A stretch of DNA of 64,000 bases, taken from positions 7,998,001 to 8,062,000 of the forward strand of contig CM102285.1 of NCBI GenBank assembly GCA_046563655.1, given 5' to 3'. The notes under the pieces were generated by a model. The model worked only from the letters and a program-made list of their open reading frames with translations. It was not told the DNA's origin and searched no databases. Made by a program: the position numbers and the translations under genes. Shown one piece after another: positions 59,849-60,472 of the stretch. This DNA is from Yuukianura sp. NJ FZ-2021 (lineage: Eukaryota). Positions within the stretch are counted from its first letter, which is position 1. The number at the start of each line of letters is the position of its first letter.

Positions 59849-60472
59849 ATGATTCAGGGAATAAGTGCAGCACATGCCAAAACGTGGACAGTAGTTGGTA
59901 AGATGTCACTTAATGATTCAAAAGTTACGAATAAAATATCGTAGGAAAACAACTCCTAGTGCTTGGTTTACCCCTTAATTTTTGTCTTAGGGACGATCTT
60001 CAACAACTTGCGAGGTCACTGGAACTTTATTCGTGAAATCGAGAGTAAACTGCCTTCATCCCCTAGTGGAACAGTCACTGGATATGCTAAATTCGTCAAA
60101 ACACAGGAAGGTGATCATCAGTACTTGTACTCCGAAGAGGGGAAGTTCCAGATAGAAAATGCTGGTACTCCACTTGACGTTAAACGAGAATACTTATACG
60201 AATATGACGACAAATTAGACTCTATCCAAGTTTTCTTTGCCACTAACCAATCATCAAAAGACAGATTCTTTCATACAGTTTCTGTAGAAGAAGCAGAACT
60301 GACTGCCACTGGAGAGCATCTATGTGAAGCTGATCATTACACAGCGAGATACTGCTTCCCTGAACAGGCCTCGAATCGTTTCAATATCCAGTTTACTGTT
60401 AAGGGTCCACAGAAGGACTACGTAGCATCCACTACGTTTACAAGGGACGCCAGTTCTCTACCTTTACGTTAA
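59849..60472 (+). CDS. DUF6314-like small beta-rich protein (~176 aa), two exons
   Basis: Exons 59849-59897 and 59991-60472 join in frame (phase 1). Motifs IFNNLRGHWNFIREIESKLPSSPSGTVTGYAKF, YLYSEEG, REYLYEY, FFH, HLCEADHY and VKGPQKDY match my recollection of DUF6314. Confidence 0.8.

Follow-up and report, generated by a model that had tools for sequence, protein, structure and literature searches.

The question raised by this locus is how a member of an uncharacterised protein family found mainly in bacteria and fungi came to lie between animal genes, and what its product may do there. The locus belongs to a 64,000-nucleotide stretch of DNA, the whole of which is referred to here as the window. 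The explanation that best covers the observations, and to which a little more than an even chance is given, is that of a real animal gene whose product would be a barrel of the nitrobindin/CpeS/OlmO type serving a small metabolite, and whose forerunner would have been acquired from a microbe before the split from the lineage represented by a metagenome contig, L001. What is new here is an animal member of an already known family, DUF6314.

Judged from its sequence, the locus is an intact, predicted two-exon nuclear gene of an arthropod-like animal (Table 1), present in a single copy in the window (tblastn). Its start codon is the ATG at 59849 on the plus strand; an in-frame TGA, read from the sequence 15 nt before it, shuts the frame and makes this the first usable ATG of exon 1. 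The leader exon is required for translation, because Met codons are absent both from exon 2 and from the open frame that reaches back from it into the intron. The intron is bounded by a canonical donor (G/GTAAGA, with the GT at 59898-59899) and acceptor (TTTTTGTCTTAG/G, with the AG at 59989-59990) and splits a Gly codon; if left unspliced, the reading runs into an in-frame TAG stop. The exon-2 product (P0001) has 159 amino acids and the predicted spliced protein about 176 residues. An intact reading frame with one canonical intron in an N-terminal extension had been reported in a preliminary description of this DNA, and this is confirmed by the GT-AG borders and by a frame open to the TAA. The junction had been given there as 59897-59991; the intron itself stands, with each end moved one base inwards. 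The motifs listed on that occasion are all found in the translation (GHWNFIR, GYAKF, YSEEG, FFH, HLCEADHY, VKGPQKDY, and SKLPSSPSG).

Table 1. The DUF6314 gene and its neighbours, in positions of the window.
Feature	Position	Strand	Basis
Upstream in-frame TGA	59834..59836	+	Sequence
Exon 1 (49 nt): leader peptide MIQGISAAHAKTWTVV and first base of the split Gly codon	59849..59897	+	Sequence; matching 46-nt leader exon in L001
Intron: 93 nt, phase 1, GTAAGA...TTGTCTTAG, 32% GC	59898..59990	+	Sequence; same codon and phase in L001
Exon 2: rest of the protein, 160 codons including the split Gly, TAA at 60470-60472	59991..60472	+	Sequence, translation
DUF6314 domain: residues 6-151 of exon-2 product P0001; predicted 10-stranded beta-barrel	60008..60445	+	Pfam, AlphaFold
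Upstream neighbour: intronless, divergent iGluR/IR-like gene, tandem paralogue of the ORF in the next row	55213..57360	-	Weak Pfam and PDB matches
Second intronless iGluR/IR-like ORF	52136..54217	-	Weak Pfam and PDB matches
Downstream neighbour: 5' part of a multi-exon UGGT gene, start at 61062 inferred	61062..64000	+	Exon 62052-63008 matches UGGT structures

The family assignment is secure, the protein being a DUF6314 member by every criterion examined. P0001 matches the Pfam model PF19834 with 115.8 bits (cut-off 23.1) along its full length (profile positions 1-131 of 131; E 2.4e-33), a result that upholds the membership for which a Pfam check had been proposed. In a 40-row alignment that includes the window protein, 10 columns are invariant (W10, G30, E48, G50, H109, C111, D114, Y116, G138, and K141 in P0001 numbering) and 11 nearly so, and all of these residues are present in the window protein. 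The only other Pfam match, with E up to 1, was to DUF5648, below threshold. NCBIfam gave no match, a tblastn search of a plasmid collection none either, and searches of PDB with the sequence and with a profile stayed below significance (best E 0.8 and 0.26). Free-standing bacterial and fungal members of the family resemble the window protein in their full-length profile match, in the invariant W, G, E, G, H-x-C-x-x-D-x-Y and G-P-x-K and in their size (about 150-180 residues). In contrast to them, the window gene resides in an animal genome, starts with a leader exon peculiar to its lineage and is split by an intron at the edge of the domain, and its product is at most 50% identical to any match except the L001 orthologue. 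To our knowledge, no ligand or activity has been described for any DUF6314 member. Among the papers searched, none was found to refer to DUF6314, PF19834 or IPR045632.

The nearest animal genes on this contig are 2.5 kb away on the upstream side and about 0.6 kb away on the downstream side. This agrees with the preliminary description, which placed the gene between IR genes and UGGT; the IR matches are weak and the UGGT exon is clear in PDB searches. The two minus-strand ORFs upstream, each of about 700 amino acids, are 81.7% identical over 660 amino acids and both begin with a signal-peptide-like segment (MYKLKV...LCVLSLKL). Their matches to iGluR-type ligand-binding and channel domains are weak and stay under the Pfam cut-offs, and in PDB both match GluD1/GluK5 (E about 5e-7), so that the pair is compatible with divergent, fast-evolving receptors of the IR type. 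The UGGT exon (318 amino acids) is 68% identical, over 30% of the query, to a metagenome protein with a UGGT domain, the sole match at 1e-20.

The nature of the host was approached through an NDUFS3 exon (35210-35677, minus strand), which reaches 132 bits with the PDB entries 8b9z and 8esw and about 91 bits with the next entries; the corresponding identities, counted by eye from the printed alignments, are about 73% and about 55%. We take 8b9z and 8esw to be complex I of Drosophila melanogaster and the other complex I entries to be mostly mammalian. On the basis of this single exon and of the PDB entries so identified, the host looks arthropod-like. The base composition of the DUF6314 gene (42.6% GC, 39.6% GC3) is that of its neighbours (42-43% and 38-43%, respectively). 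Codon usage, with a correlation of 0.35 against 0.25 for the NDUFS3 exon, is uninformative at so short a gene length. The spliceosomal intron, the flanking animal genes and the host-like GC3 together show that the gene is physically integrated in the host DNA.

A scan of metagenome contigs recovered 46 loci, among which only L001 (2336 bp) is close (60% identity; product P0002). The rest include no further close orthologue and are 26-38% identical over long alignments. The organisation of L001 repeats that of the window gene, with a first exon of 46 nt that begins with ATG (241-286), a GT-AG intron 103 nt long (287-389) and a single further exon that contains the whole domain and likewise has no Met. 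In L001, too, a Gly codon is divided by the intron, in identical phase and at the corresponding position of the alignment; the leader peptides differ (MIQGISAAHAKTWTVV in the window, MMSRVSSSSKTLTEI in L001). The intron is older than the split of the window gene from the L001 lineage. An intron gain, as proposed in the preliminary description, would have had to precede that split. Over 151 aligned codons the two genes have an amino acid identity of 61.6%, a dN of 0.285 and a pS of 0.766, the latter saturated and beyond correction. Such a dN combined with saturated synonymous sites indicates an old gene that has been under purifying selection throughout, in lineages that are deeply diverged.

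The rarity of close relatives extends to the protein collections. An exhaustive HMMER search among 1.84 billion cluster representatives returned 1200 matches at E<=1e-3, of which 390 remain at E<=1e-10 and a single one, P0002, at E<=1e-30; the next best match scores 102 bits. A word-index search of 5.8 billion proteins yielded two relatives among 41 candidates. Neither the DUF6314 nor the UGGT query found a database protein of 100% identity. The host lineage is seemingly absent from these collections, and the rarity may partly reflect sampling.

The exact-sequence look-up of 30 matches gave organism names for six and none for the other 24. Three of the six are algae (Gonium pectorale, Pleodorina starrii, and Closterium sp.), two are fungi (Botryobasidium botryosum and Vezdaea aestivalis) and one is an animal, the bdelloid rotifer Adineta ricciae, with a protein in which the domain is fused to a flavin monooxygenase (FMO); arthropods do not occur among the six. 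ESM Atlas clusters around two homologues (P0172 and P0028) are either bacterial, with Pseudomonadota commonest, or fungal (Ascomycota and Basidiomycota). The Pfam model was found in 17 of 401 prokaryote genomes from the phylum of a gammaproteobacterial genome and in 7 of 301 from that of a Ferrimicrobium genome; none of 14 control genomes contained it. A scan of genome contigs with a single protein gave three loci. The family is patchy in bacteria, common in fungi and present in green and streptophyte algae, and its earlier characterisation as mainly bacterial and fungal agrees with the sampled genomes, the named members and the Atlas clusters. In animals it was seen here only in the bdelloid rotifer and in the window/L001 lineage, most matches being without an organism name.

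Many of the larger members are multidomain proteins. Among 20 long matches scanned with Pfam, four carry an FMO-like monooxygenase before the domain, eight have WD40 repeats around it and in eight no other domain was recognised; the tRNA enzyme Rit1 is a further fusion partner. The Atlas clusters of FMO-DUF6314 proteins come from Ascomycota and Basidiomycota. These fusions (in G. pectorale, P. starrii, A. ricciae and many Ascomycota and Basidiomycota) share with the window protein the C-terminal domain, at 38-50% identity, and are among the rows nearest to it by tree path length. The window gene, unlike them, has no monooxygenase part, and a search upstream of the gene revealed no FMO relic in the window or in L001. 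In four kinds of fungal-type metagenome loci (L033/L034, L041, L043, and L042/L044), the domain is interrupted by gaps of 44-92 nt near residues 59 and 112-124. These gaps, which several of the loci have in common, have CTGAC/CTAAC-like branch sites and YAG acceptors and are probably introns, to judge by these sequence features. No intron occurs at those positions within the domain in either the window gene or L001.

In bacteria, the family occurs in a variety of gene neighbourhoods. Adenylosuccinate lyase adjoins the gene in 8 of 19 proteobacterial loci (L055, L057-L060, L062, L063, and L065), an EamA gene in 3 of 19 and the biotin transporter BioY in 2 of 19 (L055 and L059, which thus have both lyase and transporter). 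In the six actinobacterial loci, a histidine phosphatase adjoins in three and a GntR-aminotransferase in four. No common theme runs through the neighbourhoods of the different bacterial phyla.

Two trees were built, one with FastTree from 178 domain sequences and one with IQ-TREE (LG+C20+F+G4, PMSF) from 70 hand-picked rows representing each clade, with 108 of the 178 rows left out. The window protein and P0002 are joined in both (support 100/92). The fungal clade (98/99) does not include them, and the node above the window clade has a support of 59/90. AU tests, which are weakened by the fact that their groups were defined after the first tree had been seen, gave the following results: uniting the window clade with the fungi was 5.27 lnL worse (p-AU 0.144), uniting it with a six-row Adineta clade was 2.44 lnL better than the free search (p-AU 0.537), and separating 37 presumed eukaryotic from 23 bacterial rows, with 10 rows of unknown origin left free, was 0.99 lnL worse (p-AU 0.413). 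The best tree found is the constrained one in which the window clade joins the clade that contains the rotifer, where the A. ricciae protein (P0028, 648 amino acids) is accompanied by P0016, P0044, P0027, P0086, and P0106. The FMO-DUF6314 fusion of A. ricciae may go back to an animal acquisition of its own or to one shared with the window clade. Strongly supported nesting of the window clade inside a donor clade was not observed; given the weak node support and the AU results, the trees do not identify a donor, nor do they reject one clade of all eukaryotes. The horizontal transfer put forward in the preliminary description is thus not demonstrated by the phylogeny.

Horizontal acquisition is nonetheless regarded as the more likely origin, with a probability somewhat above one half, on account of the very patchy range of the family and of a layout in which the domain occupies one exon and is preceded by a recruited leader exon. 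Domesticated foreign genes are a well-known kind of event in arthropods. According to this reading, a microbial gene would have entered a common ancestor of the host and of the organism from which L001 derives. The conserved domain would have remained undivided within a single exon, a short leader exon specific to the lineage would have come to provide the ATG, and the phase-1 intron would mark exactly the N-terminal edge of the domain. The acquired gene would then have taken on the base composition of the host and been held by purifying selection. If a transfer did take place, the locus offers a clean case of foreign-gene domestication (one-exon domain, recruited leader exon with the start codon, and junction intron), with the layout conserved in a second lineage under long-term purifying selection, as well as an animal model for finding the ligand of an uncharacterised family.

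Vertical descent is the strongest of the alternatives, an unlikely one that still deserves consideration. It supposes that an early eukaryote or opisthokont already possessed DUF6314 and that most animal lineages later lost it, an arthropod-like lineage and a bdelloid rotifer being the survivors. The tree in which all 37 eukaryotic rows are united is hardly worse than the free one and the best tree links the window clade with that of A. ricciae; the fully host-like base composition and the age of the gene, with its saturated synonymous sites, would also be expected. However, very many independent losses in animals would be needed, and only one match scores above 102 bits among the 1.84 billion representatives. 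The rotifer is the sole animal among the six named matches and its protein carries the fusion to FMO that is typical of fungi; bdelloid rotifers are known for massive gene uptake. Moreover, no intron position is held in common with the fungal-type loci. If the gene was vertically inherited after all, it would be an ordinary member of a patchy family and of low interest.

A transfer specifically from a fungus, followed by intron gain, is a reading suggested by the preliminary description and appears improbable. Fungi make up the largest eukaryotic share of the family and the constraint that unites them with the window clade is not rejected, but in the free maximum likelihood tree the window clade stands outside the well-supported fungal clade and the constraint costs 5.27 lnL. 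The motif SKLPSxPSG, which had been taken for the fungal form, does not discriminate: although 8 of the 9 rows of the fungal clade have PSG there, so do 7 of 21 rows of bacterial type, as well as 2 of the 8 rows that remain when the window pair is set aside. The within-domain introns of the fungal-type loci are missing from the window gene, and a trace of FMO upstream is lacking in the window and in L001. Contaminant DNA, or a misassembly joining a microbial gene to animal sequence, would accord with the mainly microbial range of the family but is, like the reading as a pseudogene, effectively excluded, since the start codon depends on a spliceosomal intron, the same intron recurs in the independent contig L001, GC and GC3 match those of the neighbours, animal genes flank the locus on the same sequence and no bacterial promoter-like sites were found against 4.1 expected.

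As regards the protein itself, AlphaFold2 run with the 40-row alignment gave a confident model (mean pLDDT 91.9, pTM 0.85) with ten antiparallel strands, and the Atlas model of another member (P0172) resembles fungal DUF6314 clusters with TM values of 0.86-0.88. A Foldseek search, which together with structure prediction had been recommended in the preliminary description, returned this barrel's best natural match in the CpeS bilin lyase 4tq2 (E 5.4e-5, TM 0.71). With VIA-align, the top row was a designed 10-stranded barrel (Z 14.9), a likeness of geometry only. It was followed by OlmO (Z 14.0), CpeS (Z 13.7, rmsd 2.9 over 143 residues), OssO (13.7), DUF3598 (13.6), Ycf58 (13.5), BFA1 (13.4), Rv2717c (13.1), the nitrobindin of Arabidopsis (At1g79260; 12.2-13.0) and that of THAP4 (12.3); fatty-acid-binding proteins reached a Z of about 9 (at most 9.1). 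The protein is, according to the model, a soluble 10-stranded barrel of the nitrobindin/CpeS/OlmO class.

The likeness to these groups is one of fold. Nitrobindins, the C-terminal domain of THAP4 and Rv2717c share the fold class (rmsd 3.2-3.4 over 135-138 residues) but have no sequence similarity to the window protein detectable by HMMER, the identity in structural alignments being 7-11%; no nitrobindin chain appeared in the PDB sequence and profile searches at E up to 10. The S-type phycobiliprotein lyases (CpeS and CpcS/Ycf58) likewise have the fold alone in common with it (12-14% identity), and neither Pfam nor PDB gave a sequence match to this family; we know of no animal with phycobiliproteins. 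The polyketide spirocyclases OlmO and OssO (Z 13.6-14.0 over 133-134 aligned residues, 9-13% identity) illustrate how this type of barrel can serve as an enzyme, with its small-molecule substrate lodged in the cavity; the window lacks a polyketide gene context.

A proposal on function can be derived from the distribution of conserved residues. When the alignment is compared with the model, invariant and nearly invariant residues are seen to share a within-strand alternation (10/14, 46/48/50, 67/69, 109/111, and 114/116). The residues concerned are W10, R14, Y46, E48, Y67, Y69, H109, C111, D114, Y116, K141, and Y143. In the model they would line one face of the barrel, presumably that of the cavity. 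The resulting pocket, with many Tyr, His, Cys, Asp, Glu, Lys, and Arg side chains, would be suited to an active or specific binding site rather than to a lipid cavity, and the predicted barrel may bind, and possibly convert, a small metabolite instead of being a plain lipid carrier. The repeated fusion of the domain behind flavin monooxygenases in fungi, algae, and a rotifer suggests, by inference, a role with a small oxidised or redox-related compound. The leader peptide, inspected by eye, does not look like a signal peptide, for which reason the free-standing protein is assumed to be probably cytosolic.

It might be argued instead that the barrel binds haem or a bilin in the manner of nitrobindin or CpeS, with H109 or C111 as the ligand and a part in NO/peroxynitrite chemistry or tetrapyrrole chaperoning, rather than being an enzyme or carrier for a metabolite of the FMO type. 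Nitrobindins have been described as all-beta-barrel haem proteins. Both CpeS/Ycf58 and the nitrobindins Rv2717c, THAP4, and At1g79260 are among the closest natural folds, and the invariant His and Cys stand in an H-x-C motif. Such a role is nevertheless given a low probability: the sequence matches neither family, equally good scores are reached by OlmO, OssO, DUF3598, BFA1, and also an anti-sigma factor, so that the fold does not name the ligand, and the fusion partners (FMO, Rit1, and WD40) do not point to haem.

Returning to the proposed role with a small metabolite, a wider and rather doubtful extension can be envisaged. A captured microbial barrel resembling nitrobindin and CpeS, kept by selection since before a deep lineage split, might act on its own, as enzyme or chaperone, on a small redox-active metabolite (for example an FMO product, a tetrapyrrole, or biotin) and might endow the host with a capacity in metabolism or detoxification not shared by other arthropods; the window and rotifer clades could then go back to one old acquisition in animals. 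The fold assignment, the conserved polar residues and the recurrent fusion to FMO make the function of DUF6314 testable at the bench.

Some other features of the window are of note. An exon at 38542-39132 (plus strand) is presumably MTHFR-like. A segmental duplication of about 2.9 kb (43500-46378 and 48553-51430) has 98.5% identity between its copies, each of which contains an open frame of 310-315 amino acids (44477-45424 and 49525-50457); the latter frame had no match in a Pfam scan. At 42391-43099 (minus strand), a peptide unit (…FTLHKFHF…CTISN…) recurs through overlapping open frames, a pattern that points to tandemly repeated DNA immediately upstream of the duplication.
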